From a virus, in IMG/VR virus record IMGVR_UViG_3300023179_000062, positions 21,487-85,486 of that record: a DNA stretch of 64,000 nucleotides. The stretch is one strand, 5' to 3'. This document shows, piece after piece, positions 13,975 through 51,087 of the stretch. Below the pieces are notes generated by a model, which was not told where the DNA came from, ran no database searches, and saw only the letters and a program-made list of their open reading frames with translations. The translations under genes were made by a program, and so were the position numbers. Numbering within the stretch: the first letter of the stretch is position 1; each line of letters starts with the position of its first letter.

Positions 13975-14274
13975 ATGACTCCAGAGTTTGATAAATTTAT
14001 TCAAGAGATATTAACAGAGGCTAAACGATGTCAAGGCCCATCTCTTCGCCAATTAAGTGATAAAGCAAGGTACCGTTTCATGGCATGTCGGGAAAATCCA
14101 TACTCGCCGGGGTACAAAAGAATTTATTGGGGACATAAGGATGGGTCATTTGATTATACAAAATGTTTACGAAATCCTAGACCGGGAACAAGTGCCTATG
14201 AAGAATGTAAGGATATACAACGTGCTCGGCTCAAAAGATTGAAAAGATTACGTAGATTAAAAAATAGAAAATAA
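13975..14274 (+). CDS. small basic hypothetical protein, candidate internal head protein
   Basis: TATAAATA at 13962-13969; leader MTPEFDKFIQEILTE; Arg/Lys-rich tail. Confidence 0.7.
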   Translation: MTPEFDKFIQEILTEAKRCQGPSLRQLSDKARYRFMACRENPYSPGYKRIYWGHKDGSFDYTKCLRNPRPGTSAYEECKDIQRARLKRLKRLRRLKNRK

Positions 14275-14277
14275 AAT

Positions 14278-14433
14278 ATGAATTTCTTAGAATTATTAAT
14301 GTGTGAAGAGGATGATGCCGGAATAATGGTTATGCCAGATATTAATCAATTTCATGATGATGCCATATATATTACAGATTTTAGTAAATCATTAAATCTC
14401 TACCAACCGGACGATTGTACCATAGAATCCTAA
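14278..14433 (+). CDS. small acidic ORF (51 aa), not in the ORF track
   Basis: MNFLELLMCEEDDAG... read directly; its end overlaps the convergent PAS gene. Confidence 0.3.
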   Translation: MNFLELLMCEEDDAGIMVMPDINQFHDDAIYITDFSKSLNLYQPDDCTIES

Positions 14434-15027
14434 AACCTTCCCGTCAATTGATTTATGGGCAACAGCGGTTGTTCTAACTCTGAATCTTTTTTTAGTATTA
14501 TGGTTCATAACAGTGTATTCCGCTTCATATGGAATATCAAGCGCAATGCTCTCGTTCCATTGTTTCCATACATATGCACGATCATCGCCTAACACACCTG
14601 ATAACCATCCACTACCTAGACAGTCTTCAAAGGTAAGACCGAACATATCACATAATGCTTTATTAACCCATGTACATTCTCCATTTGGAGCACATTCGTA
14701 TGCACCTGTGGTGATTAAATTATTAGCAATCATTTTGGAGCGTAACTCTGCTAAAGACACTGCATCATTAATTCTATTAATTTGATCTTTTATAGATTTT
14801 CCTCCATTTTTAGAGAATTCATTTTTTAATGAATTTATAATAGGTAAAACTTCTTCGTTTAAGGTTTTACATATCGCTGCTTGCTCGTCCACATGATTTT
14901 TTGTAAAATCTAGTATTTTCCGTATAGGTGTAATTATTAGTTTCCAGCCACCCCATAGAACACCTATTAAAGTGACAAGCCCCACTAAAATCTCTATTGC
15001 TGCTTGTAAAATTAATAATGTTTCCAT
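14392..15027 (-). CDS. membrane-anchored PAS-domain protein (holin-like candidate)
   Basis: One N-terminal TM helix, coiled coil with NGGKSIKD, PAS motif G.CTWVN.A...MFG....D.LG.GW....DDR..V...W; late box 15036-15041. Confidence 0.8.
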   Translation of the reverse strand: METLLILQAAIEILVGLVTLIGVLWGGWKLIITPIRKILDFTKNHVDEQAAICKTLNEEVLPIINSLKNEFSKNGGKSIKDQINRINDAVSLAELRSKMIANNLITTGAYECAPNGECTWVNKALCDMFGLTFEDCLGSGWLSGVLGDDRAYVWKQWNESIALDIPYEAEYTVMNHNTKKRFRVRTTAVAHKSIDGKVLGFYGTIVRLVEI

Positions 15028-15063
15028 GTATAATTTATTTATAAATACACGATAAACATATGA

Positions 15064-15252
15064 TTATTCTTCGTATTTTTTAATTATGTTAGCAACCATT
15101 TCCAGAGTCTCTTTCAAAATATCTGCGTCCTGTAATGTTATAGTTAATGGACTTTTATTTAAAATATTTACTAAATGGCTCCAATGCGCAAGTAATTGAT
15201 TTTTTGATATAGGCGTCGATGTATTAGGAAGATTATCCATGATATTATTCAA
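15064..15252 (-). CDS. hypothetical protein
   Basis: 62 aa, coupled to the upstream ORF. Confidence 0.5.
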   Translation of the reverse strand: MNNIMDNLPNTSTPISKNQLLAHWSHLVNILNKSPLTITLQDADILKETLEMVANIIKKYEE

Positions 15253-22182: not shown

Positions 22183-22941
22183 ATGGGTAGAATAAAATGG
22201 ACTGATGAAATGTTACATTCTGATGCATTAAAATATAAACATAGAAGTGATTGGCAGAAGAATTCCAGTGGTTATCAAATTGCTGATCGTAGAAATTTAT
22301 TAGATAGTTGCTGTCAACATATGGTGCCTAAAATAAATTGTTACACCCATAATATCGGTGTGATATATGCATTTATGTTTGATGATAAAACCATATATAT
22401 TGGACTGTCAGTTTCGCTACAGAAAAGATATAACTATCATTTAAGAGAAGGAATAGTTAATAAAAAAATTAATACATCTATACCTTATAAATTTATAATT
22501 TTGGAACAAAATATCCCTAATCAAATGCTATCAGAGAAAGAAATATTTTATATAGACAAATTTAAAAATGATGGATGGAATTTATTAAATATTGCTAAGG
22601 GTGGAAGTAGAGGTGGTACTTATATTAAAATTAAAAATGAAGAATTGATGAAATCTGCTTCAAAATATTCTTCAAGAACAGAATGGGCAAGACAGGAACA
22701 TAAATTATATAATGTGGCGGTTCATAGAAAATTAGTAGATAAATGTTGTGAACATATGACTGTTATTAAACGATCTTGGAATATTTCTGATGCAATTAAT
22801 GAAGCACAAAAATATTCAACTATTTCTGAATGGCAAAAAAATAATAAGTCATCTTACAATTTTTTATATAGAAAACCGGAAATGATGGATGCCATTGCAC
22901 ATATGAATAGACATTATATTAGAAAAACTAATACTATATAA
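22183..22941 (+). mobile_element. free-standing GIY-YIG homing endonuclease
   Basis: GVIYAF...IYIGLS...KRY..H...EKE..YI...LLN catalytic motif plus three A.KY....W DNA-binding-type repeats; inserted between gp14 and gp21. Confidence 0.8.
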
Positions 22942-22955: not shown

Positions 22956-23636
22956 ATGCAAATCGCTCGTAAATTAATAGTAGAATCACCTAATTATGAT
23001 CTTGTTTTCGAAAAAGTACAAGAAAATAGGGATTCTGATAAAAGGTACTTCATTACGGGACAGTATGTAATGATGAATCGCGGTAACAAAAATCGCCGTA
23101 TTTATGAGGAAGATGAAATGGTTCCTGCCGTTGATACCTATATTAAAGAATATGTTCTTGAAAACCGTGGGGGTGGAGAACTTAATCACTCTGACAAGCC
23201 AGATGTGGACTTGACAAAGTTAGCAGATAAAATCGTTCATCTTGAACGTGATAAACATGACTCAGATTATTATCTTGGGCGTTCTTTAGTACTATCAACC
23301 CCATCCGGTAAAATCCTTGAATCATTGATTCATGATGGTGTAAAGTTTGGTAAGTCAACTAAATGCTTAGGTCAAATTTCTGAAAGCACTGACGGTTTCA
23401 ATCGTGTTAAAATGCCTATTCTCGTCTTAGTTGATAACGTATTTGATCCTTCCGTTTCCACTGCATTCGTAAATGGAATCTGTGAAAATAGAGAATATAT
23501 CATTGGAAATGATGGCAAGATTGCCCGTGCATATGAAGCATTAGATGCAAGTCTTTCCAAATATCCTTCCAAGCACTCGGATGAAATCCGTGCCTATATC
23601 TTTGAAAACCTTCAGAAATTCCTTGCAAAAATTTAA
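22956..23636 (+). CDS. gp21: prohead core protease
   Basis: NKNRRIY, GELNH, L.TPSGKI..SLI..GV.FG.S...LG, D.V.DPS...AFVNGI.E. Confidence 0.93.
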   Translation: MQIARKLIVESPNYDLVFEKVQENRDSDKRYFITGQYVMMNRGNKNRRIYEEDEMVPAVDTYIKEYVLENRGGGELNHSDKPDVDLTKLADKIVHLERDKHDSDYYLGRSLVLSTPSGKILESLIHDGVKFGKSTKCLGQISESTDGFNRVKMPILVLVDNVFDPSVSTAFVNGICENREYIIGNDGKIARAYEALDASLSKYPSKHSDEIRAYIFENLQKFLAKI

Positions 23637-23641: not shown

Positions 23642-23929
23642 ATGAACACTCATTCTGAATTAGAATTAATATATGAAAATATGCTCACCCCGATAGGAGC
23701 ATTAAGTATTACTCAACAGCAACAACCTGTACAAGTTACAGAAATTGAAGAAGAGATGTCGGAAGCCGACGAAGTGAAAATTGCTAAACAAATACTTAAA
23801 CAAGTAGATCAATTGGATATGGCGGCAAGTGAAGCAGCAGTTAAAACATATCGCCGCAAATTAGAATCTATTGCTGATGCTATCAGAGATTTAACTAGTT
23901 TGTTAATTCAGGGACACCCCGGCGTATGA
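23642..23929 (+). CDS. hypothetical protein, candidate core/internal protein
   Basis: Leader ELELIYE; directly follows gp21. Confidence 0.6.
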   Translation: MNTHSELELIYENMLTPIGALSITQQQQPVQVTEIEEEMSEADEVKIAKQILKQVDQLDMAASEAAVKTYRRKLESIADAIRDLTSLLIQGHPGV

Positions 23930-24135
23930 CACAAAAATTTGATAAATTTGTAAACGATTTAATTTCTAAATATGGTGAAAAAGAAGTATATTCGGGTATA
24001 GATGTTGAAAAAGAACACAAAGATATTACGCATGGAGATAAGCTAAAAACAGCTAAAATAGCTGCTGTACATTTAAAAGAAAGACCTGATTACTACAAAA
24101 AACTTAAAAAATACGTAGAATCTAATAGCAATTAG
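23926..24135 (+). CDS. DUF5661-like small protein
   Basis: G..VE.EH...A.KIA..HL.E.PDYY.KL motif; leader MTQKFDKFV. Confidence 0.7.
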   Translation: MTQKFDKFVNDLISKYGEKEVYSGIDVEKEHKDITHGDKLKTAKIAAVHLKERPDYYKKLKKYVESNSN

Positions 24136-24533
24136 CAATTCCATTTTCTTAAGCTTTTATTGATGCGGCTATCTGGATCATTTGCAGTTTTAGCAGAAGT
24201 TAATTTAGATTTCATGCCTTTCATACGTGAGCAAAAAGATTTTCGACGTTTTGCAGATTTACTCCCTTTTTTCAATTTAGAGGGTTCAGTAGTTACTGCT
24301 GTTTGTAATTTAGAACCGGGATGTTCCCTTTTATATGACTCCACCCCTTTTTTATTAAGACCGCCTTCGGGATTTTTCCCTTCTTTTCGTTGCCATGCAG
24401 GGGTTGAACTTTCTTGGACAGGCACACAATTTGGTACTGTTCTTTTCCCCTTCTTTTTCATTCCTACTTTCTTGTAGCCTTTCCAACAGGATTCTAAGAT
24501 AGAAGTTACATATTCGTCAAATTGTTCGGTCAT
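24132..24533 (-). CDS. DUF6321-like basic protein
   Basis: AWQRKEGKNPEGGLN...RRKSFC.RM.G...SLRKWNC preceded by CWKGY..VG...VPNCVP; late box 24540-24545. Confidence 0.75.
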   Translation of the reverse strand: MTEQFDEYVTSILESCWKGYKKVGMKKKGKRTVPNCVPVQESSTPAWQRKEGKNPEGGLNKKGVESYKREHPGSKLQTAVTTEPSKLKKGSKSAKRRKSFCSRMKGMKSKLTSAKTANDPDSRINKSLRKWNC

Positions 24534-24538
24534 GTATA

Positions 24539-24739
24539 TTATTTACATTTTTTTATATTATATGTGTTGTTGTAATGAATTTTGATTTGATTAGTAAGAA
24601 AATGCATGATTCGTCCTTCATTTTCTAATGCAACAGTCCATACATCATTCTCATGCATTCCATTTTCTTTTATATATAGTACATAACCTTGCCCCATTGG
24701 AGTGACTACAGGAATAGGGTCTTTTGGTTCAAATATCAT
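24539..24739 (-). CDS. conserved phage hypothetical protein
   Basis: 66 aa, PIPVVTPMG.GY...NDVWTV. Confidence 0.6.
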   Translation of the reverse strand: MIFEPKDPIPVVTPMGQGYVLYIKENGMHENDVWTVALENEGRIMHFLTNQIKIHYNNTYNIKKCK

Positions 24740-24794
24740 TTATCTGAATATAAAAATGCCAGTATGAAGTTGGAGTGAATCAGATGAAGATGAT

Positions 24795-25244
24795 TTAATA
24801 TCTTGATGTTCCCCGCATCCACGAAGGGATATCTGTCGTTTTTGGCATCGGAGTAGATTGTTGTTTCGGACCTTGACTTGACGTATTAGGTTGATTGGGC
24901 ATTGCGGTATTACTTCCAGTGGGTGTGGATGGTTGATTAGATGTAGCTAAAAATTGTGGAAATTTCTGTTGAATCTGATTAAGAAGATTTTTACTTATTT
25001 GTGCAGTGAAATTTCTAGGAGAGAGCTTACTAACTGAACCGCTTGTATTTATAACTGAACCGTCTTGTGTATATGGTAGATATTCGGATTGAATACTGGG
25101 GTCCATATTATTATAGGTATTAGCATCTGTTATTTTTCTAGCATTACCATTCGCATCAAATGACATATATCCTATGGCTTGTGGAGAAGATTTATTATAT
25201 AATGCTTCAACTATACATTCTAATTTATTATTATTATATGTCAT
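24795..25244 (-). CDS. hypothetical protein with Q/P/S/T-rich tail
   Basis: 149 aa; late box 25251-25256. Confidence 0.6.
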   Translation of the reverse strand: MTYNNNKLECIVEALYNKSSPQAIGYMSFDANGNARKITDANTYNNMDPSIQSEYLPYTQDGSVINTSGSVSKLSPRNFTAQISKNLLNQIQQKFPQFLATSNQPSTPTGSNTAMPNQPNTSSQGPKQQSTPMPKTTDIPSWMRGTSRY

Positions 25245-27983: not shown

Positions 27984-28012
27984 AGCATAACATATTATCC
28001 AAAGTTAAGCAA
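27984..28012 (-). promoter_or_regulatory. sigma70-type early promoter TTGCTT-17-TATGCT (extended TG), 6 nt before ATG
   Basis: Reverse complement ttgctt aactttggataatatgt tatgct aatatc ATG. Confidence 0.65.
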
Positions 28013-28052
28013 ATTATTGTTTTATTTAAAACAAATCAATAAATATTAAATT

Positions 28053-28220
28053 ATGACTAGCGAAGCCCAATCACATATTCAGAAGTTTCTATATAATTTA
28101 TCTATGGAGAATTATTCAGATGCAGATAAAAATCTTAACAATCTTGTAAAACAGAAGGTAGATCGAAGATTTAATGATGCAACGGAGAAGGTTAAGAGTG
28201 ATTTAACGAAGATAAAATAA
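28053..28220 (+). CDS. small prohead core protein candidate (gp67/68-like, 55 aa), missed by the ORF track
   Basis: MTSEAQSHIQKFLYNLSMENYSDADKNLNNLVKQKVDRRF...; own late box 28040-28045; directly before gp22. Confidence 0.65.
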   Translation: MTSEAQSHIQKFLYNLSMENYSDADKNLNNLVKQKVDRRFNDATEKVKSDLTKIK

Positions 28221-28255
28221 TAGAAAATATAACTATTTCAATAAATAATCCTTAT

Positions 28256-29164: not shown

Positions 29165-29175
29165 TAGATAAACAC

Positions 29176-29181
29176 TAAATA
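29176..29181 (+). promoter_or_regulatory. late promoter box for gp23 (example of about 43 TAAATA sites)
   Basis: TAAATA 8 nt before ATG 29190; no SD. Confidence 0.7.
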
Positions 29182-29189
29182 TAAAATAT

Positions 29190-30746: not shown

Positions 30747-30773
30747 TAGCTAAAGAAGAAAAGAAAAATCCAC

Positions 30774-30807
30774 GAAAACCCGCTCAATTGAGCGGGTTTT
30801 CTTTTTT
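30774..30807 (+). terminator. intrinsic terminator after gp23 (probably bidirectional)
   Basis: gaaaacccgctc-aatt-gagcgggttttc followed by a T-tract, between convergent genes. Confidence 0.88.
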
Positions 30808-31342: not shown

Positions 31343-31345
31343 AAT

Positions 31346-31531: not shown

Positions 31532-31534
31532 AAG

Positions 31535-33875: not shown

Positions 33876-33892
33876 TAATAAAAAATAACAAT

Positions 33893-33924: not shown

Positions 33925-33934
33925 GTTTAATTTA

Positions 33935-37054: not shown

Positions 37055-37095
37055 ATATCATACTATTTATAATATTCCAAAAAAATCCTTATTTA

Positions 37096-37707
37096 TTAAA
37101 CAAGTTTCATACTTAGCTGACTAAAATCAAAAGTAAAGGTGGATTCTGTCTCGGATGCATCACGGGTACTGACATTTATTCCGCCTATACCTGTAATAAA
37201 TGCATCATAATATATAAACTCTGCTACAGGAGCACCATATTCCGCTAAAGGAAATATTGAAATATTGGTTGAGTATGTTTTAATTCTATTTTCTGATAGT
37301 CCTTCCAATGCACCATTTTGAATATCTAACCATTTCCATAAAATGTAATAATTATCATAATTATTATCTACTGTAAAATTACATACAATTGAGGGATAAG
37401 ATGGACGACTGTTTCCAGAAAATTTAAAAGTTTGTCCCCCAAATGATGTTTCTATTTTATTAACAGAAATGTCAGGAATAACCGATCCCCATACGGAGAA
37501 CCTTAATCTCTCTAGATTTCCCCCATGACATAATCTGTTTTCTTTTTGAACTAAGGGTTTTAGTGCGGGCGGCATATCCATCACCAATAGAAACTTATCC
37601 TTTCTGGATACATTGAGGACGCTCTGTTGATCAGTATAATATGATTGATTAACTGGTTCAGTAGGACAGTTATCTTCCAACACAGGAGCATTTGGTCTAT
37701 TATTCAT
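37096..37707 (-). CDS. gp3: tail tube terminator/completion protein (gp3-like, tube fold)
   Basis: F.V...IP.I.V...G.....Y..I...F.VD..Y.NY..LWKW...F.Y.DAF....GI......FTF.F. Confidence 0.6.
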   Translation of the reverse strand: MNNRPNAPVLEDNCPTEPVNQSYYTDQQSVLNVSRKDKFLLVMDMPPALKPLVQKENRLCHGGNLERLRFSVWGSVIPDISVNKIETSFGGQTFKFSGNSRPSYPSIVCNFTVDNNYDNYYILWKWLDIQNGALEGLSENRIKTYSTNISIFPLAEYGAPVAEFIYYDAFITGIGGINVSTRDASETESTFTFDFSQLSMKLV

Positions 37708-37716
37708 AATTATTAT

Positions 37717-38682
37717 TTATCTAGTGTATAATTCTAACTGTTCTATTACTGTGTTATAATATGAGTCAAATGAATCACCTATTACCCCTTTATGTTGATA
37801 ATATTTCGGCATACTGTCAATATCCATCTGTCGAACTTGTTGAGTTGCTGCGCTTTTAGATACTGTTTGTTCCTCTTCTAATCCTGAAACATCGCCTTTT
37901 TCCATATCATTAAGAGTGATAGAATATCGTTTACCTGTATATGTGGATATATTGTAACTGGTTATTCCTGCACGTTCGTCTGCATCATCATCGTACATAT
38001 GCCCTTCTTGCTCCAGTGCATCGTTTATACCCCTTGCCACGTTTCTGAGAGTGATGGAATTTAATTTATGAACTTCTATATTAGTACCATGCACACGAAT
38101 CCAGTTCCAATTTTTGATAGCATATTCGCGGGCATCTACTGTTGATCCATATGCAGTTAGCACTAAATCACTGGCTTTAGTCTCTGACATTTTACAGAAC
38201 GTAACAAGATATTTGATTATGGCATTAGCGGGGTCATTTTCTATATCTCCCCATTCATCTCCTATCTCATCTCCTATCTCACTTATGATATTGTTTTCAT
38301 GAAATTCATCTAGATTAAAAAATGAAGCAACTTCTGCACCACATTGTTGAATAACATATGCTTCATGGTTCATATCCCCTACGTCCCCGTCCGCATATTG
38401 AGCATTACCGCTCTCATCGAACCAATACTCACCTTTAATAGGAAGTTCTTCTACTTCAGGAGTTTCGGGTGTTTCTTCGGTAGGTTCTTCTGCGGCGAAT
38501 ATTCTATCTTTATTTGCTTTAATGATTCGTTCAACCATATCAATATCGAACGATTTACCTCCTAATTGCGGAACACCTTTTTCATCTGTTAAAGTATAGG
38601 AACCATCATCGTTCTTTTTCTTGAAAAGAGGAACTATATTTTCTATTATAGTATGCAGGTAACTGTCGAAATATGAAGTCAT
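37717..38682 (-). CDS. acidic hypothetical late protein, candidate packaged protein (start corrected from 38709)
   Basis: TAAATA box 38688-38693 lies 5 nt before ATG 38682 (MTSYFDSYLHTIIEN); this start removes the overlap with gp17. Confidence 0.7.
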   Translation of the reverse strand: MTSYFDSYLHTIIENIVPLFKKKNDDGSYTLTDEKGVPQLGGKSFDIDMVERIIKANKDRIFAAEEPTEETPETPEVEELPIKGEYWFDESGNAQYADGDVGDMNHEAYVIQQCGAEVASFFNLDEFHENNIISEIGDEIGDEWGDIENDPANAIIKYLVTFCKMSETKASDLVLTAYGSTVDAREYAIKNWNWIRVHGTNIEVHKLNSITLRNVARGINDALEQEGHMYDDDADERAGITSYNISTYTGKRYSITLNDMEKGDVSGLEEEQTVSKSAATQQVRQMDIDSMPKYYQHKGVIGDSFDSYYNTVIEQLELYTR

Positions 38683-38693
38683 AGGAGTATTTA

Positions 38694-40400
38694 TTAAACG
38701 AATGTCCACCCGTTGCCTGCGTATTTAGTCATATCATGTTCTTTATAATTGAAAATACCTTTACCCATTTGGAATATAACTGGTGCGGGTGCTCCCCCTG
38801 TACATGCATAATTAGTATTACCGTCTCCCTGATTATAAAATGATATATTTGCTAATTCTTGATTAGGGTCTGCTATTCTAACAGGTTTACCTGTCTCATC
38901 ATATTCAAGTACTTCTAAATATTTCTCAGCTATATCCTTCTCTAATATAATTAATGCCCATATAAGAGACATAATTCTGTCGTCATGATGTCCTTTTTTT
39001 GCTCCCCATGTTTTATTTTCTTTACGAACAAAGGTTTCAAATTCTTTAACAGTTGACATATCATATATTTTAACAGATTCTAGGTGTTCGATGAAATATT
39101 TCATATTCATAATACCTGTATATTTGGAATTTTGATGACAGAAAATACCGAGATTTTGATATACTCCGCGTGTATCATTTTTCATAGAATAGTGTATAAT
39201 GTTCTCATATCTATGAACTTCTGACAGTGCATCTACTACTTGTCCCCCTTCTTTATTACGTTCTATACATAAAAACGGACGACCCCATGATCGTGCAATC
39301 TGGTTCAATTTTTCTGCAAAGATATATGGTTGTAACCTATTCGATGCAAAGGTAGCACAATGTCTAATATCAGTTGGATCAGTTATATCTATAATCTGTG
39401 CAACCGAATAATCTTGTCCAACCCCTTCAGCAGCATCAACTCCAATTGAGTATACTCTATTAGCTTCTGGTTCTCTCCATACCTGATAATCTCCAAAATC
39501 ATAAGTGAAATCCGCAGGACGACACATATTTTTTAGACGCTCAATAACCTCTAAATTCAATGCAGAAGTTCCATCTTCTAAGAAATGAAGGTCAAATTCT
39601 TGATTCCACATTGACATATCATATGATATTGCTTCTAACTGTTCCTTTTTCCATGCATCATCGCGCCCCGGTATCTGATGCCAATATATTTTAACACATT
39701 CCCAATTAGATTTTTTCTTCTCAGCATTTGAGAAAATATCATAAAATTTATTTTCAGTTCCTTTAGGGGTCGAAACTATGACTAGTTTAGATTTTCTAGA
39801 CGACGAAAGCGTAGGAATAATGGATTTAAAGAAGTCATCGGCAATTTCCTTACGTACGTGGGCAAACTCGTCAACAAATAACGTATTTACTGACTTTCCT
39901 CGAATAGCATCCGCAGAAGTAGTTGATACAAATATTTTAGAACCATTAGTTAATCGAAGTTGTTCTTTAGTGAAGTCTGATACGCCTGCTTTAATATAGT
40001 TAGGAATTTCTTCATATGCTAACTTAATACGTTCTAGAATTTCCTTTGCTTGGTCTTCCTTATTAGCAAGAATTGCTACAGTATGATCTTCTGTGAATAG
40101 AGCATACCATAGGCATACCACGGTCATTAGGGTGGATTTTCCTACCTGTCGGGATGCACATATAACAGTTCTTCTATTTTGAATAATTTTGAGAATAGCT
40201 TCTTTTTGGGGTTCATATAACTTTATTTTCTGCCTACCTTCATCTAAATTTACAATATAGAAAAAGTTCTCTGCAAAGTATATAACATCGTCCTTGCATC
40301 TACGTAGTTCTTCAATCTGTTCGGGGGTGTATTCAATTTCTACAGATATAGGAAGGTTTTCATTATTATTTAAAAACTTATCTGATTTCTTCTTAGCCAT
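38694..40400 (-). CDS. gp17: terminase large subunit
   Basis: Walker A SRQVGKST, Walker B LFVDEFA, motif III VSTPKG, nuclease GVDAAEGVGQDYS and HDDRIMS. Confidence 0.97.
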   Translation of the reverse strand: MAKKKSDKFLNNNENLPISVEIEYTPEQIEELRRCKDDVIYFAENFFYIVNLDEGRQKIKLYEPQKEAILKIIQNRRTVICASRQVGKSTLMTVVCLWYALFTEDHTVAILANKEDQAKEILERIKLAYEEIPNYIKAGVSDFTKEQLRLTNGSKIFVSTTSADAIRGKSVNTLFVDEFAHVRKEIADDFFKSIIPTLSSSRKSKLVIVSTPKGTENKFYDIFSNAEKKKSNWECVKIYWHQIPGRDDAWKKEQLEAISYDMSMWNQEFDLHFLEDGTSALNLEVIERLKNMCRPADFTYDFGDYQVWREPEANRVYSIGVDAAEGVGQDYSVAQIIDITDPTDIRHCATFASNRLQPYIFAEKLNQIARSWGRPFLCIERNKEGGQVVDALSEVHRYENIIHYSMKNDTRGVYQNLGIFCHQNSKYTGIMNMKYFIEHLESVKIYDMSTVKEFETFVRKENKTWGAKKGHHDDRIMSLIWALIILEKDIAEKYLEVLEYDETGKPVRIADPNQELANISFYNQGDGNTNYACTGGAPAPVIFQMGKGIFNYKEHDMTKYAGNGWTFV

Positions 40401-40463
40401 TACAATATTTATATGTTAATATTAAAATAGAAAAATCAAACGTTTACAATAAATAATGTTTAT

Positions 40464-41237
40464 ATGGAAAACAATCTAGACCTAGTAAACATTTATGAGA
40501 ATCATTATCTTAAGCCACAATCTTCTGCTGTGATTGTTGAGAAGAAAGAAGAAGCTAAGGAAGATGAGACTACTGATGCAGCCGCTGCACCTACTGTTTC
40601 TGCTACCAAGAAGAAAAAGAAGCCTTTCGATGCAGGTGCATGTTATAATGAGAAAAATTCATTCGACAACCTTTTCAATACCTTTATGGAAGAATTTGAC
40701 TCTGGTGAAAATTCTTTTGATGACGACTCTAGCGACGATTCCTTTGAATTTGATGCAGGAGAAGATGACGGAATGGGTGGCGATGACGACCAAACTTTCA
40801 CTCTCTCCGAACTTAAATCAATGACCCTTCAAGAAATTTGTGATCTTCTCTCTGGTGCAGGCACATCAGACGACGGAATGGGTGACGATTTCAGCTTTGA
40901 TGATGGAGACGACTCAGTTCCTACTGAATCCTATGGTCAAATGGGCAACGGTAAGCACCTCGGCAATACTCAGACCCGTGATGGTAAGCCAAGCAAGCAA
41001 GCAGCTACTACTCGCGTAAAGGGTAATGGTGATGCAGATTTCTCTAAAAATGAAACAGGTTTTGCTCCTGAAGACACTGAAGGTTCCGAAGGTGGGCATC
41101 ACGGTAATACCCAAACCCGCGACGGCAAGCCAAGTAAGCAGCCATCAACCAGTCATGTAAATTCCAATGGAAATGCTAAAGTGGGTCAATCCCAACGCAC
41201 AGGCTACGGTAAAAAAGAAGGTCAGAGATTATTCTAA
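40464..41237 (+). CDS. acidic disordered late protein with duplicated basic repeat (core/internal protein candidate)
   Basis: Late box 40450-40455; two H.GNTQTRDGKPSKQ copies 141 nt apart; own terminator. Confidence 0.7.
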   Translation: MENNLDLVNIYENHYLKPQSSAVIVEKKEEAKEDETTDAAAAPTVSATKKKKKPFDAGACYNEKNSFDNLFNTFMEEFDSGENSFDDDSSDDSFEFDAGEDDGMGGDDDQTFTLSELKSMTLQEICDLLSGAGTSDDGMGDDFSFDDGDDSVPTESYGQMGNGKHLGNTQTRDGKPSKQAATTRVKGNGDADFSKNETGFAPEDTEGSEGGHHGNTQTRDGKPSKQPSTSHVNSNGNAKVGQSQRTGYGKKEGQRLF

Positions 41238-44811: not shown

Positions 44812-45539
44812 ACGGATTGTTTATAGTCTTTGTAATCTTCAGCGAACTCAATTGCTAGCTTCTGCCATAATTTATCATTGTGGAATTCTCCTAGTCCATG
44901 ATGAATGGCAAAAATCGGATATACCCCGATTGATAATCCTACCTTTTTGGCTTCTGCACATGCAGACATATCATAGTGATGGAAAGTATATTTCTCATTA
45001 AATTTCACCCCACTATCAGCCACTTTCTTAGTATTAAAACTGATAAAAACCCCATCCACAAATACTACCTCTGCGGGAGTTGGACCATAAAAAGATGAAT
45101 TAACATACGGAAACCCATATCCTCCGATATCTTTAGGAATAACATGTGATAGAAACCCTCTACCATCTTCTTTTCGGTTCATACATAAATGCCATGCCAG
45201 CGTTGTAGCATTGATATAATTTTGACTGGTTGTGCCTGCTACACCTACTATGTCAAATCTCTCATGAGCTTTTCTAAGCTTTTGAATGAAAAATTGGTCA
45301 TGAATTTCAATATCATCATGTACAAAAACTGTGATAGACTCCCCATTTTCGACAGGATCATTATGTATGTATTCGTTGTATAACGCACAGAAACCTTTAC
45401 GGTTTTCGGGAATAATCGTAACATATATTTCCATTTTTTTAGAATCGTGTGTCTGTATAATACGATTTAGGCAAGTATATGGGACACTATTTTTATAAGC
45501 TTCTTCGGTTAAGACCGTGGGTACAACTATTCGAATCAT
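44808..45539 (-). CDS. GT-A fold glycosyltransferase (family 2-like)
   Basis: YN...VFVHDD...DIVGVAG...DGVF...FHHYD...C...H. Confidence 0.8.
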   Translation of the reverse strand: MIRIVVPTVLTEEAYKNSVPYTCLNRIIQTHDSKKMEIYVTIIPENRKGFCALYNEYIHNDPVENGESITVFVHDDIEIHDQFFIQKLRKAHERFDIVGVAGTTSQNYINATTLAWHLCMNRKEDGRGFLSHVIPKDIGGYGFPYVNSSFYGPTPAEVVFVDGVFISFNTKKVADSGVKFNEKYTFHHYDMSACAEAKKVGLSIGVYPIFAIHHGLGEFHNDKLWQKLAIEFAEDYKDYKQSV

Positions 45540-45544
45540 ACCAT

Positions 45545-45573
45545 AATATACATCTTATGTGCTTAAATAGCAA
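45545..45573 (-). promoter_or_regulatory. sigma70-type promoter TTGCTA-17-TATATT, 5 nt before ATG
   Basis: Reverse complement ttgcta tttaagcacataagatg tatatt atggt ATG. Confidence 0.6.
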
Positions 45574-45615
45574 CATATATTTAAAATGTCATCAATATAG
45601 AATAAATACTGTAAT

Positions 45616-46167
45616 ATGAATTATCGTGATTATTTTGCAAAACTCTTACTTGAAGACACTGACTTGGGGAATCCTACACATGATTCTAACGGAAGTGATG
45701 ATATCTCTAACTTTTTAGACGATGGTACAGAATCAGAAGCATTTGACACTACTGGTATTCAAGACAGTCTTAAGAAAATTGAAGCTAATTTTAATCAGAA
45801 AATGGCTCTTCTCGACGATATTGACAGCCTCGATAAGTCAGAAATTAATTCTCGTTTAGGACAATTAGAAGAATATCTCACCACTCTTAGTGCTTTTGTT
45901 AATACCAAGGATGAAGTGGATATGACCAATCCTTATTCTGTAATGGCAAATATCATCCGTAGTGATACTGTCAAAAAGACCAACTTTGACCAAGTAACTA
46001 AAGCTATCGAAGATTATAAAAGCTCTTCCAAGAAAGAAGAACAAGCAACTGAACAGGCTGCAAGAGAAGTAAAGGATTCATTAGGTAATCTATCAAAAGC
46101 TCGTAAATCCGTGACTTCTTCAAGTCAAGGAAGTGCTCCTAGCGAACCATCCGGCCCTTATAATTAA
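45616..46167 (+). CDS. hypothetical late protein, candidate internal/core protein
   Basis: Late box 45603-45608; leader MNYRDYFAKLLLE; helical and acidic. Confidence 0.65.
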   Translation: MNYRDYFAKLLLEDTDLGNPTHDSNGSDDISNFLDDGTESEAFDTTGIQDSLKKIEANFNQKMALLDDIDSLDKSEINSRLGQLEEYLTTLSAFVNTKDEVDMTNPYSVMANIIRSDTVKKTNFDQVTKAIEDYKSSSKKEEQATEQAAREVKDSLGNLSKARKSVTSSSQGSAPSEPSGPYN

Positions 46168-47147
46168 ATTCTAAGTAAACCTTTCTCTTCTGTAAAAGAA
46201 GACTCCACAATTAAAGCAGGATCAACAAAATCCTGCTTTTTTGCTACACAGAACTCGTTTAAATCCTTAAAGGGAGCGAACTCATTTTCATAGAAAAATA
46301 AACGTTCACCTGCGCGTAATTTAGAAATTAGTTTATTAACTACTTCTTTTTTCTCAAATTTGAGATTATCCAAAACCCATATTCTTTCGTGAAATGGGAA
46401 CTGTTCTAATTCTCGTTCCTGTTGTTGGGTTAAGGTTAATCCTGAAACTGCCACGCCATTTTGAACAAACATTGAATCTATCTGACCTTCGAATAAGAAA
46501 ATATAAGGAATCTCTGTCTTGATCTTATCAATATTAAATATTGTTTTAGGTGCATTAAATTTTAACAAATACTTTGCACTATCATCATCTAATATTTTAC
46601 GAGAAGTGTAACATATGATTCTATTATTCTTATAAAAAGGTATAATTAACCTATTTTTATGATATTTATCATTTAGACATACATAGAAAGTTTTAGGGGT
46701 GTTGATTGCATTGAATAATCTACGAGAATTACAATAATCTAATGCTTTCTGAACAATGGGTAATTTTTTATAAAATTTAAGCTGTACGGCATCCCTTAAG
46801 TTTACACATTCCCCCGGTAAATCAGGTAAAGTCCATTCTTTATCGGCTTCTTGTTCCCATTGTAAAATATAATCAGAATCTCCGGTATATTCCTTAATAT
46901 CATCTTTCAATTCCTTATGCGTCATACCGGAAACTTCTTTAACCCACCAATAAGGATTCCATGATCTTGCGCAGTTGTAACAATATAAGAAATCGTCTTG
47001 TATGTAATAATACAAGCGTTGTTTCGTATCCCAATTACTTCCTTCATGACAAATAGGGCAACCCCCGTTCAAATAACGAGAATGCTGCTTAGTCTTATTT
47101 GCATAAGAAAAGAATTTAGATATTGTATATGACTGAGGAATTTCCAT
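46164..47147 (-). CDS. gp61: DNA primase
   Basis: Zn finger CPIC...CYNC, RLIIPF, TOPRIM FEGQIDSMF, WVLDN, KDLNE. Confidence 0.92.
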   Translation of the reverse strand: MEIPQSYTISKFFSYANKTKQHSRYLNGGCPICHEGSNWDTKQRLYYYIQDDFLYCYNCARSWNPYWWVKEVSGMTHKELKDDIKEYTGDSDYILQWEQEADKEWTLPDLPGECVNLRDAVQLKFYKKLPIVQKALDYCNSRRLFNAINTPKTFYVCLNDKYHKNRLIIPFYKNNRIICYTSRKILDDDSAKYLLKFNAPKTIFNIDKIKTEIPYIFLFEGQIDSMFVQNGVAVSGLTLTQQQERELEQFPFHERIWVLDNLKFEKKEVVNKLISKLRAGERLFFYENEFAPFKDLNEFCVAKKQDFVDPALIVESSFTEEKGLLRI

Positions 47148-47512
47148 TATTCGTGTATATTTCCTATAACTTTAATATCGACAAGATCGGATAAAGTCCG
47201 TCGGTATAGGCACCAGCCAAAATTTATAAATTTAACGGGACCACGGATGAGGTTATCTGATGGGTAATTTTCAGGAGTTAAATATGCTTCGATTATATCA
47301 TTTTCATAAATAGGAACACCATTTATATCACTGATGCCAGTATATTGTTCAATTATTACATCTTCCCTATGTGAATCATATAATGTTCCGCATGGATGAA
47401 CAGATATTCTGTTTGTTGTTATGTAACAACCATCTAGTTCATGAATAGTATTCTCTATTTTTTTAAAACATTTTTCATTACTCCAAACTCGAAATCGTAA
47501 TTCGCGCTGCAT
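47147..47512 (-). CDS. YopX family protein
   Basis: RELRFRVW...QYTG..D.NG..IYE.DI...VIGNIHE. Confidence 0.85.
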   Translation of the reverse strand: MQRELRFRVWSNEKCFKKIENTIHELDGCYITTNRISVHPCGTLYDSHREDVIIEQYTGISDINGVPIYENDIIEAYLTPENYPSDNLIRGPVKFINFGWCLYRRTLSDLVDIKVIGNIHE

Positions 47513-47521
47513 ATATGCATG

Positions 47522-47550
47522 AATATATCATGACAATGCCACACTTTCAA
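47522..47550 (-). promoter_or_regulatory. sigma70-type promoter TTGAAA-17-TATATT (extended TG) for YopX-primase
   Basis: Reverse complement ttgaaa gtgtggcattgtcatga tatatt, 9 nt before ATG; directly abuts the divergent late box 47551-47556. Confidence 0.6.
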
Positions 47551-47564
47551 TAAATAATAATATT

Positions 47565-48032
47565 ATGACAGAGAATTTTGATGCTTTTTGTGACGCAATT
47601 ATAACCGAATTATTTACTTCGAAGAGTAAGCGCACAGAACATAAATCGCGTTATTGGGGTACTAATCAATATAGTAAGGCACAACCTCGCCAAGTACGTA
47701 CGATGAATACTAAGACAGCTTCCCAGCGTTCCAAGTTAGGCAACCAGCAATACATAGGAAATATTTGGACACAGAAAGGTCCAAGAGGGCAGAACAAAAG
47801 TCAGAAAACTCCGCAAGAAATTGCTATAGCTAAAGGACATGGCGCACATATTCGTATTGACGGAGTAAACCCTAAAAAAGTGGGCGCTACCGTAAACTCT
47901 AAACAAGGAGATATGGAAGTCAAGTATAATTTAAATAACGGTGTTAGTAAAGTTGGTAGAATAGTCAAAAAGAACTATTTCAAAGACGGTGTTAAAAGGA
48001 ACCACATGAAACGCGGATTAAATAATGATTAA
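47565..48032 (+). CDS. basic hypothetical late protein, candidate internal head protein
   Basis: Leader MTENFDAFCDAIITE followed by a K/R-rich body. Confidence 0.7.
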   Translation: MTENFDAFCDAIITELFTSKSKRTEHKSRYWGTNQYSKAQPRQVRTMNTKTASQRSKLGNQQYIGNIWTQKGPRGQNKSQKTPQEIAIAKGHGAHIRIDGVNPKKVGATVNSKQGDMEVKYNLNNGVSKVGRIVKKNYFKDGVKRNHMKRGLNND

Positions 48033-48784
48033 TGTTAATATCAGGAATATATCTACCTAGCAATTGCGGCAACATCACTCCACAAGTGTTTCAAACTTGT
48101 CCGATGCCTAATAGTCCAGATATTACACAGTCACATATCCCGTATTTCCATCGAAAAATGTGTGATTGGGCGTTTAATATTCCATTAAACTTTCAATGGG
48201 TATTAGTAATTACTGCCAAGAACAAAAACCATCTATTTAATAAAATAAAACAACGTTTACCATCTTTAGAGCCTGCTGGCTGGAATATCGGTATGTCCCT
48301 TGACACTACATGGACAACTGCTACCCAAGACGTTATAGGGTGTATATTTGCTCAAGGTGTTAGTCTACCGGGGGAGACTGTCAATACCGAACACGTAGGA
48401 ATAACAGAGGGTAGTAATAGAGGGTTTATTAATGCTCCAGTGATATCAGGTCGAGCAAATTTTAACAATTTAGAAATTGGGTTTTTGGAAACTAATAGAT
48501 CATTTACCGATGGAGTATTACGCCCTTGGAGCATAGTTGTTGCTCATGAAGGATTGATTGCTAATCAATTAAGTATAAAGGCGGACATTGATGTGTATGA
48601 ACTCGCTAAACATGGCGAATGTTCGCCCACTGTAATAAGAAAAGTGTGGCATTTTAAAGATTGTGCGCCTATCAATATTTCTCCTGAACAAAAAAGTTAC
48701 GAAAGTTCTACAGACTATCCTAAACGCCAAGCAGGATTTGTATATAATAGTTATTCGGTATCCGACATGGGATATAATCCGTAA
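48032..48784 (+). CDS. tail tube-fold protein (gp54/gp19-like)
   Basis: AQGVSLPGE...R..F..L.I.FLET..SF.D...RPW...W.F....P.........F.Y..Y. Confidence 0.65.
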   Translation: MLISGIYLPSNCGNITPQVFQTCPMPNSPDITQSHIPYFHRKMCDWAFNIPLNFQWVLVITAKNKNHLFNKIKQRLPSLEPAGWNIGMSLDTTWTTATQDVIGCIFAQGVSLPGETVNTEHVGITEGSNRGFINAPVISGRANFNNLEIGFLETNRSFTDGVLRPWSIVVAHEGLIANQLSIKADIDVYELAKHGECSPTVIRKVWHFKDCAPINISPEQKSYESSTDYPKRQAGFVYNSYSVSDMGYNP

Positions 48785-48801
48785 CTAAATATATCAACAT
48801 A

Positions 48802-49776
48802 ATGCGGAACACATATTTAATTTGGATACCATCATTACAAAGAAATATTCGATTTAACGAATTAACAAATGAACAGTATCGTATAATTTTGAAAAATGTC
48901 GATGATGACACTCATCTAGATTTTCTTTATAATTTAAACACTATCATAGAATGTAACATGGTAGAGTCTTTTGATTATAAAAAATTCACAATACTTGATA
49001 GATTTGTCATTGTATTGTTTTTTAAAATATTAAGTTATAATTCTTTGCTGGATTTGGTTAAGGAATGTGAAAAATGTGAAAAGGAAGTTCGAATACGCAT
49101 AGACCTAAATACTTTACTTGATAATTTAGGATTAACTATTGATAAATCGTTCAAAACCGTGATAGCCGTGGATAATTATCCCTTACAGATTATATGTGAC
49201 ATTCCTACTATAGAACAGGAGTATGAAAATTTATTATACCATCAAAATAATAATTTATCAAATGACACCACTGATAAAAATATTGAAAAATATTTATTCG
49301 GGTATATCCGATATATTATTAGTGATTCTGTTGTTATTGATGTGGATAAATTATCAATTCCTGAAAAAACAACTATACTTGAAAAGATTCCGATATCACT
49401 TATCTTAAACATCCGCGATATCTTTGCAGAACCACTATATGCATTATTCAATCAAATTGTATTTCTAGATTTGAACTGTAAAGAGTGTGGTACTAAATTT
49501 GAAATAAAAATGGGATCAGACAATATGATATATCTTCTGAAAATGTTTTTCAAAGATAACACTTTAGACGGATTATTAAGTGATTATTTCAATATTACAT
49601 CAATATCACATATGGATAGTTCTTTTTTAGACAAAATAACGCCGAAAGAAACACAAATGTTAGTCAATTTTGCTAAATCAACGTATAAAAAATCGGAAAA
49701 ATCGGAAGTACCAAGTAATTCTATTGATCTTTTCGCAGACGCTGATAAATCTCCCTCGGAATTTGCTGGATTTTAA
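48802..49776 (+). CDS. baseplate hub assembly protein (gp26-like, possible gp51-like C-terminus)
   Basis: IPSL...IRF..LT...DR....L....CEKC...I.L...CKECG; C-terminal YF.......F...ITPKE. Confidence 0.6.
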   Translation: MRNTYLIWIPSLQRNIRFNELTNEQYRIILKNVDDDTHLDFLYNLNTIIECNMVESFDYKKFTILDRFVIVLFFKILSYNSLLDLVKECEKCEKEVRIRIDLNTLLDNLGLTIDKSFKTVIAVDNYPLQIICDIPTIEQEYENLLYHQNNNLSNDTTDKNIEKYLFGYIRYIISDSVVIDVDKLSIPEKTTILEKIPISLILNIRDIFAEPLYALFNQIVFLDLNCKECGTKFEIKMGSDNMIYLLKMFFKDNTLDGLLSDYFNITSISHMDSSFLDKITPKETQMLVNFAKSTYKKSEKSEVPSNSIDLFADADKSPSEFAGF

Positions 49777-49802
49777 TTTTTAAAGAGTTAAATATTAGCT
49801 AT

Positions 49803-50636
49803 ATGCAAGAGATTTCACAGTTTAATGACATTCTAAATCTATTAGAGTCCGCTAATAAGACGTTAGAGTCTAATATTTTTGTTCCTTCTTTGAAAAAAGA
49901 GATAGTATCTAGGACATTAAATGCAAACCACACAAAAAATATAGTAAAAACTACTGTTGAGGGACCGTTTGCCGAAAATCAATTCATATTAGTCATGTAT
50001 AATGTGTTAGCGGATGTGTTAGGTTCAACTATAGACTTGAACACTTTGAATTTATATGATAAAATATTGATTTTGTTGCAGTTGCGCTCTAAAAATATAC
50101 AAGATGAATATAAAATCACTTTCGTATCTGCTGATGGCGAACAGAAAATTGAAAATTCTATTTCACTCAGTAAGCATATTGAAAAACTTAAAAAAAATTC
50201 GCCTAGTTTTGAAACCATAACAGATGGAACGAAGAACGAGGACACAATGGTATATAATTATACATTAAATATTCCATCAATCAAAGAAGAATTTGTCTTT
50301 GAGAATAATTTATACCAAGAAAAGATTTCTAAAATTGACGGAACCAATAATCAACAGTTAAAAACTCTGATTGCTCCGATGTTCTTAAGTCATATTGCAC
50401 CATTTGTCAAAACTCTAACTATAAATGATACCTTAGTCGATCTAGCAGTTCGTAATGTAAATGAGCGTATAGCAATTGTGGAACATTTATCCTCTAAGGC
50501 ACTTCTAGATATTATAAAGAAAGTGGATGATGCCTTTGGTAAAGATATGCAGAATGCTACTAAGGTAACAAAGATTATTGACGGAGTTTCTTATACAGGA
50601 ACCATCAAAATAGATGCTGCATTCTTTATAGAGTAG
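49803..50636 (+). CDS. second gp26-like baseplate hub assembly protein
   Basis: VPSL.K.....L...L.LYDK..ILLQLR.....L..PS...FF. Confidence 0.55.
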   Translation: MQEISQFNDILNLLESANKTLESNIFVPSLKKEIVSRTLNANHTKNIVKTTVEGPFAENQFILVMYNVLADVLGSTIDLNTLNLYDKILILLQLRSKNIQDEYKITFVSADGEQKIENSISLSKHIEKLKKNSPSFETITDGTKNEDTMVYNYTLNIPSIKEEFVFENNLYQEKISKIDGTNNQQLKTLIAPMFLSHIAPFVKTLTINDTLVDLAVRNVNERIAIVEHLSSKALLDIIKKVDDAFGKDMQNATKVTKIIDGVSYTGTIKIDAAFFIE

Positions 50637-51087
50637 GATTCTGTGGAGCAGCCTGTCTAACAGATGTCGGATTTAAATGTCCGTTTAACTGAGTAAATGC
50701 TTGAATGATGTAATTAGTCACATCCACTACATATTTGTCATTTGGATTGGCAGTTTGTAAGTTTTTTAACTGTTTCAAAAGTTGGGTGGACTTAATATTA
50801 CCTACGATTGATTTCCATGCTTGCGAACCTGCATTTTTAGCAACTGAAACATTTGGCTTATATCCACTTTGGGTTTGTTGAGCGGACTGTTGCTGTTGTT
50901 GGGCTTGCTGTGCAGGTTGTGCCTGAACATTAGGCGCTAATTCCTGTACAACCTTCAACTGGAAGGCATTTAATTCATTATTCTCCACCATTTTCGTTAA
51001 TTGGGTGTCAGAATATTTGCCACATTCTACATCATTACGGAATTTATCAGAATATAGGGCTTGTTCATAAATTAAAATTGAGAACAT
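50626..51087 (-). CDS. Gln-rich hypothetical late protein
   Basis: Late box 51094-51099; leader MFSILIYE. Confidence 0.6.
   Translation of the reverse strand: MFSILIYEQALYSDKFRNDVECGKYSDTQLTKMVENNELNAFQLKVVQELAPNVQAQPAQQAQQQQQSAQQTQSGYKPNVSVAKNAGSQAWKSIVGNIKSTQLLKQLKNLQTANPNDKYVVDVTNYIIQAFTQLNGHLNPTSVRQAAPQNPTL

Follow-up and report, generated by a model that had tools for sequence, protein, structure and literature searches.

The window examined here, a stretch of 64,000 nucleotides comprising bases 21487-85486 of the 85,486-bp linear IMG/VR virus contig IMGVR_UViG_3300023179_000062, encodes a set of proteins with different bodies that share short N-terminal leaders. The source is an uncultured, very distant relative of phage T4. 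Its contig (GC ~34%) carries a T4-like morphogenesis set, consisting of portal (PF07230, 2.5e-82), neck, sheath-stabiliser, protease, capsid, large terminase, sheath, tube, baseplate and endolysin genes, and a megablast search with window positions 28000-40500 against isolated phages gave no match. Genomes of this T4-like lineage are roughly 220-260 kb in size. Related loci in IMG/VR number 46, and five relatives were taken whole for comparison with this phage (G000): G001, a 221,292-bp contig rated 100% complete whose capsid protein is 53% identical, and G002-G005, in which that identity is 73-88%.

A first-pass annotation of the window had listed about thirteen late proteins on both strands whose N-termini resemble capsid targeting sequences and fall into two classes, A and B. 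All thirteen of the noted N-terminal sequences (13/13) are encoded where it had placed them. They are given below in order along the window, with lengths in amino acids (aa) and, for some, the isoelectric point (pI), and are named hereafter by the coordinate of their start, with (-) for the minus strand.

13975-14274, plus strand: class A, 99 aa; leader MTPEFDKFIQEILTE at 13975-14019; predicted mature body 84 aa, pI 10.6
14278-14433, plus strand: class A, 51-aa open reading frame (ORF) beginning MNFLELLMCEE; doubtful member and doubtful gene
23642-23929, plus strand: class B, 95 aa, acidic; leader MNTHSELELIYE at 23642-23677; directly after the protease gene
23926-24135, plus strand: class A start MTQKFDKFVNDLISK with no cleavage Glu; 69 aa, DUF5661 (PF18905, 2.2e-11)
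24132-24533, minus strand: class A, 133 aa; leader MTEQFDEYVTSILE at 24492-24533; DUF6321 body, pI 10.4
24795-25244, minus strand: class B, 149 aa; MTYNNNKLECIVE at 25206-25244; unverified member
32140-33021, minus strand: class A, 293 aa; leader MTLHQLYQLLIKE at 32983-33021
33612-33875, plus strand: class B, 87 aa; leader MESPQLENLYE at 33612-33644
37717-38682, minus strand: class A, 321 aa; leader MTSYFDSYLHTIIE at 38641-38682; directly downstream of the large terminase gene
40464-41237, plus strand: class B, 257 aa, acidic, low-complexity; leader MENNLDLVNIYE at 40464-40499
45616-46167, plus strand: class A, 183 aa; leader MNYRDYFAKLLLE at 45616-45654; acidic body
47565-48032, plus strand: class A, 155 aa; leader MTENFDAFCDAIITE at 47565-47609; body pI 10.8
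50626-51087, minus strand: class B, 153 aa; short leader MFSILIYE at 51064-51087

N-terminal specificity and conservation

The leaders are 8-15 residues long and end in hydrophobic-x-Glu, an ending that is present in 11 of the 13 noted members (23926 and 14278 are without it) and is kept in relatives for ten. When a site is defined as [LIVF]-x-E with the Glu at residue 8-15, it is found in 33 of the 88 called genes of the contig as against 262 of 2045 equal-width internal windows (12.8%; binomial p=4e-9), and for the window alone in 18 of 67 genes as against 220 of 1725 internal windows (p=0.0015). In a motif-free test on the 78 genes of at least 80 aa, 20 pairs of N-terminal 16-mers scored at least 26 under BLOSUM62 without gaps, compared to 0, 1, 3 and 1 pairs in four internal-segment controls. 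Three leader patterns, defined post hoc, are each N-terminus-specific, in this phage and also in G002-G005. MT..F[DN].[FYLIT] occurs at five N-termini and M[KRNT]F..[FLY][FYLIA] at eight, neither of them internally, and L..[IL][YF]E[ANSQIH] occurs four times inside the first 16 residues and once internally. Both class A patterns are missing from G001, where looser variants occur. The two variants proposed by the first-pass annotation are an oversimplification, as the leaders fall into three or more sub-types: MT..FD.F, M[KRN]F..[LF][YF] and L..[IL][YF]E.

The bodies behind the leaders had been called unrelated, and 28 proteins compared without their first 20 residues indeed gave no mutual match at E<0.1, so that the leader set is not a paralogue family. 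Chance likeness, or a hidden paralogue family, was tested as an explanation and is not supported. N-terminal amphipathic helices are common, the GH108 endolysin encoded at 61484 begins MTDRFNKWF in keeping with its own family's pattern, and five of seven extra sites in the window look like chance; set against the enrichment statistics, the unrelated bodies and the conservation in relatives, these points leave the idea with almost no credence. The seven extra sites belong to non-candidate window genes that also have a site at residues 8-15, and the five judged to be chance are those of a metallophosphatase-like protein, the tube, a glycosyltransferase, a hub-like protein and a 116-aa ORF. As a negative control, none of 10 full-length orthologues of the tail-tube protein retains its chance site.

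Most of the genes had also been said to have late boxes, and TAAATA is found within 30 nt in 10 of the 12 called candidates. In most window genes, e.g. 13975, 24533(-) and the genes at 28256 and 29190 described below, TAAATA ends 5-8 nt before the ATG and there is no Shine-Dalgarno sequence, so that the late mRNAs would be leaderless or nearly so. A promoter-like box adjoins the start codon in nearly all genes and many proteins begin MT or MN, as would be expected if the shared N-termini reflected an RNA-level constraint on translation start near the TAAATA box. It is extremely unlikely that they do. The motif is missing from late genes whose starts are arranged alike, namely those of sheath, tube, terminase, capsid, portal and baseplate; the conserved Glu lies 8-15 codons in, at a variable distance, and is kept down to ~30% identity; and the same body domain is found with and without the extension. 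Furthermore, synonymous codons differ at the conserved leader positions (Glu is encoded 16 times by GAA and 8 times by GAG, and nine codons are used at P3, the hydrophobic position), which argues that selection acts on the peptide. The leader is specific to N-termini, is selected at the protein level and is portable between unrelated bodies.

Conservation of individual leaders was assessed by searching the relatives with the bodies alone (residues 21 onward) and then inspecting the N-termini of the matches; large homologue samples were drawn from a 5.8-billion-protein collection. In class A, three of three homologues of 13975 keep hydrophobic-x-Glu, at residues 15-18; the I-L-E at residue 14 of 24533(-) is kept in both of its homologues, one of them 100% identical; the site at residue 15 of 47565 is kept in two of two; and the sole homologue found for 45616 keeps L-L-E at residue 13, this leader having a leave-one-out position-specific scoring matrix (PSSM) score of 12.8 and a background fraction of 0.0005. 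In class B, [IL]-Y-E is kept in all eight distinct homologue N-termini of 23642, where L7, Y11 and E12 are invariant in nine sequences and an acidic tract recurs in relatives, and L-Y-E is at residue 11 in four of four distinct homologue N-termini of 33612 with body identity down to 32-35%. The site of 40464 is kept in 6/6 relatives and in 48 of 54 database homologues, L7 and Y11 being at least 90% conserved; among the homologues without the site four have Y-x-E displaced by one residue and two are truncated. The sole homologue found for 51087(-) keeps L-Y-E at residue 8, followed by ALY, and the leave-one-out PSSM background fraction of this leader is 0.002. A look-alike of 277 aa beginning MQEISQFNDILNLLE (49803-50636, plus strand; weak baseplate-hub match to phrog_150, 1.1e-4) was rejected as a leader gene, the Glu being replaced by Asp in one of two homologues.

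Together with 33021(-) and 38682(-), which are described in the next section, these results leave 13975, 24533(-), 33021(-), 38682(-), 45616, 47565, 23642, 33612, 40464 and 51087(-) as the best-supported members, and these are well supported. Ten of the thirteen first-pass members are hence backed by conservation, and three are not: 23926 is without the Glu, and 14278 and 25244(-) are unsupported. The 14278 ORF lacks both an [LIVF]-x-E site and a TAAATA box, has no homologue among the relatives, and overlaps the gene at 14392-15027(-) by 42 nt. For 25244(-) there is a TAAATA box and I-V-E at residue 13, with a PSSM score not above background, no homologue in the relatives and no Pfam or PHROG family. 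The portable N-terminal module on unrelated late proteins that the first-pass annotation proposed is nevertheless supported by enrichment, by unrelated bodies and by conservation, and the observation is stronger than that annotation stated.

Bodies, leader exchange and variable islands

The small bodies of 13975, 24533(-) and 47565 are very basic (pI 10.4-10.8) compared with 9.6 for T4 IPII and 9.7 for IPIII. No Pfam or PHROG family was found for 13975, 33021(-), 33612, 38682(-), 40464 or 47565, and only weak Pfam/PHROG matches were found for 45616 and 51087(-). PF19846 spans residues 52-131 of 24533(-) at E 8.9e-20, and this DUF6321 body matches the C-terminal ends of larger PHROG families. 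Searches for PDB sequence matches at E<=1 were negative for 24533(-), 40464 and 47565.

The 293-aa protein 33021(-) keeps its site in two of two homologues among the relatives and belongs to a family of 107 database homologues, 30-59% identical and encoded on contigs of up to 345 kb. The column of Glu13 holds Glu in 97 of 99 non-gap rows, and the site is present by rule in 90 of the 107; of the 17 without it at least eight start at, or one residue before, the residue after the Glu, and homologues that start at this P1' Met look like a gene-call artefact. Residues N108, A122, H123, R124, H127, E214, E218 and A221 are invariant in the family. The H-x-x-x-H spacing followed by two Glu suggests, from sequence, a putative metal site, but zincins carry Glu where this family has Arg.

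Translation of the 321-aa protein 38682(-) is taken to start at an ATG that lies within a longer GTG ORF, 37717-38709, nine codons from its beginning. Two of its three homologues among the relatives have the site by rule, and in the third the site is further in because the ORF was called from an upstream ATG. The body domain (residues ~84-310) has 681 matches at E<=1e-3 in a library of 50%-identity representatives. In 45 of 81 aligned members of the domain family a leader-like hydrophobic-x-Glu stretch stands ahead of the conserved GE[YWF]W start, about 20 of the 81 begin within eight residues of the domain with no N-terminal extension, and the domain occurs with all leader types. It is also found inside polyvalent-type proteins of 800-1900 aa, one with ART-PolyVal and one with portal and 2'-5' RNA ligase-like domains. 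Its signature reads GE[YW]W...YADGD.GD.NHE...DAREYA..W.W.RV.G..IE.

Structure prediction of the mature bodies, which the first-pass annotation had proposed as a check, gave confident AlphaFold2 (AF2) models of both proteins, with a mean predicted local distance difference test (pLDDT) score of 90.1 for the 293-aa and 88.0 for the 321-aa protein. In both the leader forms an N-terminal helix of lower confidence (block means 64-70; residues 3-11 in the 293-aa protein) before a body above 90. No significant structural match was obtained, an absence that does not prove new folds. For the 293-aa model Foldseek against PDB gave a best E of 0.13, which is not significant, and a wide VIA-align search gave a best Z of 4.5, with helices only; for the 321-aa model the best E values were 0.74 with Foldseek against PDB and 0.17 against BFVD, and PDB sequence matches were only at E 0.22 and 0.64. 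The ESM Atlas gave no usable lead for either protein (best feature score 0.88 for the 293-aa protein). Taken together, these searches assigned no function to any leader protein of the window.

The first-pass set of about 13 proved too small. The upstream 21 kb of the contig contain about 12 additional leader genes, including those of proteins of 1082 and 1187 aa, so that leader genes total about 22-25 of 88, about a quarter of the genes of the contig. Among the upstream leader proteins are a T7 gp0.7-like kinase (phrog_15752, 7e-10), a NUDIX protein (6.9e-17) and a GP88-family protein. The known domains begin after the leaders, at residue 52 for the DUF6321 body of 24533(-) and, upstream, at residue 23 for NUDIX, 19 for the kinase-like match and 136 for GP88. 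Comparison with relatives indicates that leader sub-types are interchangeable on the same body: the upstream 397-aa GP88-like gene has the leader MRFKDFF and its G005 orthologue an MT..F[DN] class A leader instead. Two modules of the 1082-aa protein, which has leader-like copies within its chain in the manner of a polyprotein, are encoded in G004 by two independent genes that each have a leader, and in G005 a gene of its own, again with a leader, encodes what is the C-terminal half of the Nudix protein here. Since the same body domains thus appear with varied leaders or none, fused or split, the tag is modular.

A variable cargo island lies two genes downstream of the portal gene, after a 697-aa gene, at 13975-14433 in the window, 24470-24769 in G004 and 45098-49947 in G005. 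It contains one leader gene in G004, two ORFs in this phage (13975 and 14278) and seven consecutive leader genes in G005. Beside it, in G004 and G005 also, is a conserved gene (14392-15027, minus strand, in the window) for a 211-aa late protein with an N-terminal hydrophobic segment and a PAS domain (PF08447, 1.6e-9).

The occurrence of leader genes in variable islands, with 1, 2 or 7 at one locus in three relatives, the exchange of leader types between orthologues, and two upstream genes in which 28 of 33 leader nucleotides are identical (by eye) are features that could arise if promoter-plus-leader persisted mainly as a recombination junction for the swapping of genes in late slots, the peptide tag itself having little function. 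Such an origin is very unlikely as the main explanation, since most leaders are too divergent in DNA to recombine, and the Glu and the P3 hydrophobic residue are conserved in families at 30-50% identity, which points to selection on the peptide. A role as recombination junction is, moreover, compatible with a targeting function of the leaders.

Protease, scaffold-like protein and capsid

Three head genes of the window bear directly on how the leaders might be read.

22956-23636, plus strand: prohead protease of the T4 gp21 family (Peptidase S77; PF03420, E 4.9e-20; phrog_207, 2.8e-35)
28256-29164, plus strand: 302-aa scaffold-like protein; its gene immediately precedes the capsid gene, in the position of T4 gene 22
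29190-30746, plus strand: major capsid protein, T4 gp23-like (phrog_138, 1.8e-79)

The protease begins MQIARKLIVE, followed by S, an N-terminus that is conserved in relatives. Its His78 and Ser134 align with T4 His85 and Ser140, which we take to be the catalytic residues of the gp21-type protease, and are invariant in 18 sequences including T4 gp21; the N-terminal L..E is likewise invariant in the 18-sequence alignment. The scaffold-like protein begins MLNELQPIFE, followed by Q, which fits the class B pattern, as does the N-terminus of its counterparts in G002 and G005. Its I-F-E is at residue 10 in 14 of 17 distinct homologue N-termini and at residue 11 in two, with one fragment, and its body has 11 [LI]-x-E where 4.4 are expected (z 3.4), a surplus that suits a protein meant for cutting. 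The capsid protein, ~31% identical to cyanomyovirus gp23, has conserved hydrophobic-x-Glu sites within its N-terminal ~76 residues, namely [ILVMT][LC]-E-[NQ]-Q-E near residue 57 and [ILV]-[QT]-E near 76, each in 9/9 lineage sequences; in T4 gp23 the sequence IFE-NQE is present and the propeptide terminates at LTE-65. The T4-like tag suggested in the first-pass annotation is thus favored by the presence of a gp21-family protease gene and by N-termini of like kind on both the protease and the scaffold-like protein.

Several neighboring or similar genes were seen in passing. Between the neck and protease genes lies a GIY-YIG homing-endonuclease-like gene (22183-22941, plus strand; PF01541, 3.4e-6; phrog_20046, 5.7e-40) that is found in only one related locus and so looks like a recent insertion; T4 segD occupies a similar position among the head genes. 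A 55-aa protein encoded directly upstream of the scaffold-like gene (28053-28220, plus strand) is conserved in 30 related loci with [ST]-x-E-[ND] near residue 19, and may be a small prohead core protein. Proteins of 134-136 aa beginning MGKSI.[IL]FE are encoded in the related locus L040 (7790-8194, plus strand) and in G001 (81081-81491, plus strand); the L040 protein matches capsid residues 32-131 at 37% identity and may on that account be a free-standing copy of the capsid propeptide.

Features that the class B member 23642 shares with T4 gp67 and gp68 are that its gene adjoins that of the protease, that its relatives have an acidic tract, and that it is locally similar to the gp68 internal site INTIVENML. 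The 40464 protein has three internal [LI]-x-E against 0.7 expected (z 2.9). It has an acidic low-complexity middle and a C-terminal unit, G.TQTRDGKPSKQ..T..V.[GS]NG[DN]A, that occurs twice and is highly conserved in the 54 homologues. Because the class B pattern is present on the scaffold-like protein and on acidic, site-rich proteins, class B more likely marks prohead core components that are degraded. Judged from such sequence features, some class B members are probably core components rather than cargo, and the class A types more likely mark cargo that is retained. Two class B members, 33612 (pI 6.8) and 51087(-) (pI 9.2), fit this core picture poorly.

Carried over to the whole set, the same argument would make the leader a mark of prohead structural or assembly proteins that are cut and mostly discarded, so that the phage would have an enlarged core and not injected effectors. 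The shared kind of N-terminus on the scaffold-like protein and the protease is in accord with this, as are the acidic, low-complexity character of 23642 and 40464, their conservation across relatives, and the enrichment of cleavage motifs in 40464. However, the upstream leader proteins include enzymes with no obvious assembly role (the T7 gp0.7-like kinase and NUDIX, and also GP88), the class A bodies are not enriched in cleavage motifs, three small bodies have a pI above 10 like T4 IPII and IPIII, and the repertoire varies among close relatives in a way (one locus with 1, 2 or 7 genes) that is a better fit to accessory cargo. As an account of the whole set, an enlarged and discarded core is therefore rather unlikely.

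Relation to T4 capsid targeting and other delivery systems

The leaders are, in our estimation, probably capsid targeting propeptides of the T4 type. The N-termini of the T4 record with which they may be compared are MKTYQEFIAE of IPII and IPIII, MELITELFDE of Alt, MAKINELLRE of gp24, MLKEQLIAE of gp22 and MNEPQLLIE of gp21. By analogy with these, the 8-15-residue, largely helical tag would bind the prohead core assembled around the scaffold-like protein, and anything fused behind it would be enclosed when the capsid shell closes. The gp21-family serine protease would cut after the Glu of hydrophobic-x-Glu, freeing the mature body inside the head, and would degrade the scaffold as well; surviving bodies would remain beside the DNA inside the head and could pass into the host when the phage infects it, like T4 internal proteins and Alt. 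We thus infer core binding, cleavage, virion retention and ejection of the leader proteins from the T4 precedent, and the phage probably packages an unusually large and varied protein cargo.

Common to this system and the T4 targeting sequences are a short N-terminal propeptide on unrelated bodies, its hydrophobic-x-Glu end, and a gp21-family protease; the same kind of site on scaffold, protease and capsid propeptide; some small basic bodies along with an enzymatic class (Alt in T4, kinase-like and Nudix proteins here); and bodies that differ among related phages. The parts of one account that bear on targeting describe the first 10 residues of T4 IPIII as enough for it, with residues 4 and 7 needed for targeting and 8 and 10 for processing; an Asp at position 10 blocks processing and not targeting, and 'LIE-9' conforms to the cleavage logo (PMC9026906). 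T4 propeptides are given, in the relevant passage of another, as 10-20 residues long (PMC5694885). The present set differs from T4 in its numbers (~22-25 of 88 genes in a fragment of about one-third of a genome, as against a handful confirmed in the T4 record), in the number of its leader sub-types (three or more), in the great size of two upstream bodies (1082 and 1187 aa), in the occurrence of a polyprotein form, and in a capsid protein that is only ~31% identical to T4-like capsid proteins.

A number of observations weigh against T4-type propeptides. The phage is known from metagenomes alone, and its contig is 33% complete by CheckV. The scaffold-like protein is not similar in sequence to T4 gp22. 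With the capsid protein as query, BLASTP found a single capsid-like gene each in the contig and in the complete 221-kb G001, and no vertex (T4 gp24-like) paralogue; hhalign of 23642 with T4 gp67 and gp68, from a shallow profile of 9 sequences, detected no homology (probabilities of 5.8% and 3.6%). The late box does not separate the window candidates from other window genes (32/55 of the latter; Fisher p=0.19), and over the whole contig it is present in 17 of 22 leader genes as against 35 of 66 others (p=0.05). P3 is I, L, F or V in 46 collected leaders, but possession of the site was a condition for collecting them, which makes the P1/P3 composition partly circular. With a single Glu-aligned position matrix in a leave-one-out test, only 10 of 22 members reach a background fraction <0.01, and 47565, 33021(-), 23642, 33612 and 40464 are not above the 95th percentile; this matrix is weak for the MT..FD.F and class B types and was not used to decide membership. 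The numbers of genes that it scores no lower than the 99th percentile of internal windows are 8/308 in G001 (3.1 expected), 7/104 in G002 (1.0), 4/93 in G003 (0.9), 6/65 in G004 (0.7), 9/49 in G005 (0.5) and, with the training set included, 23/88 in G000.

Further points of this kind concern the proteins themselves and their likeness to those of T4. The 23926 protein keeps its MT..FDK start in relatives, with a site at residues 8-16 in 0 of 8 distinct N-termini there and in 0 of the 7 database homologues inspected (16 found); as T4 IPIII with Asp10 is targeted yet uncut, 23926 could by analogy be targeted to the head without cutting. Cargo bodies are not depleted of [LI]-x-E (39 observed, 40.8 expected), so that protection from the protease would have to come from folding. 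A scan of 144 ORFs of T4 (62,000-112,000 and 118,000-168,903) for similarity to the 22 leaders ranked the nine known T4 proteins 2, 13, 22, 30, 34, 37, 49, 61 and 74, which is no discrimination and indicates that the leaders are not specifically T4-like in sequence. Inspection by eye shows no more than a loose resemblance, FK[ED]F, between MKTFKEF of T4 IPI and MRFKDFF here, and BLASTP of the 28 bodies against 8 T4 head proteins including the internal proteins and Alt gave a best E of 0.014, not significant over 224 comparisons.

Polyvalent proteins of phages and conjugative elements are delivered along with DNA, and the body domain of 38682(-) also resides within such multi-domain proteins; here, in contrast, it stands alone behind a leader, and delivery would rely on the tag and the head core. 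For phiKZ, 201phi2-1 and SPN3US, two papers describe a gp21-related protease that cuts numerous proteins of the head interior after Glu, and they infer that phiKZ-type propeptides direct proteins into the prohead (PMC5694885, PMC9026906). Those propeptides are, in the passage that describes them, mostly longer than 100 residues, with A/S-x-E motifs (PMC5694885), unlike the 8-15-residue leaders of this phage with Ile, Leu, Phe or Val at P3 (partly by construction), which resemble those of T4. No virion RNA polymerase turned up in the contig, where no search aimed at one was made. A literature search found no such leader set described outside T4 and phiKZ-like phages, and 'internal protein' is a term absent from the main text of a 2025 paper on 'moraphages', large aquatic phages that have T4-like structural genes (PMC12619734).

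The principle is known from T4; what is new is how many genes carry the tag, together with the sub-types of leader, the presence of enzymes among the bodies, and the cargo islands. A bolder extension of the propeptide reading, which we regard as possible and put forward tentatively, is that the tag is a general address system with sub-codes, L..[IL][YF]E for a core that is destroyed and the other types for proteins that are delivered, and that it serves a first-strike arsenal of more than 20 proteins exchanged between relatives in cargo islands. Among the proteins loaded would then be a kinase, a polyprotein, a Nudix hydrolase and two domains of wide occurrence with no match among solved structures. 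The latter two bodies, of 33021(-) and 38682(-), belong to large unannotated families (107 database homologues and 681 library matches) and have confidently predicted folds, and they are of interest on that ground as well.

If the tag works as it does in T4, the head cargo of an uncultured phage can be read from sequence alone, and leader, protease and scaffold together form a small, testable system for protein packaging. If the propeptide reading is true, the leader genes would also provide a direct list of candidate early effectors, for anti-defense or host takeover, in a lineage with no cultured member, and the T4 capsid targeting principle would be old, widespread, and scalable to a large share of a genome.

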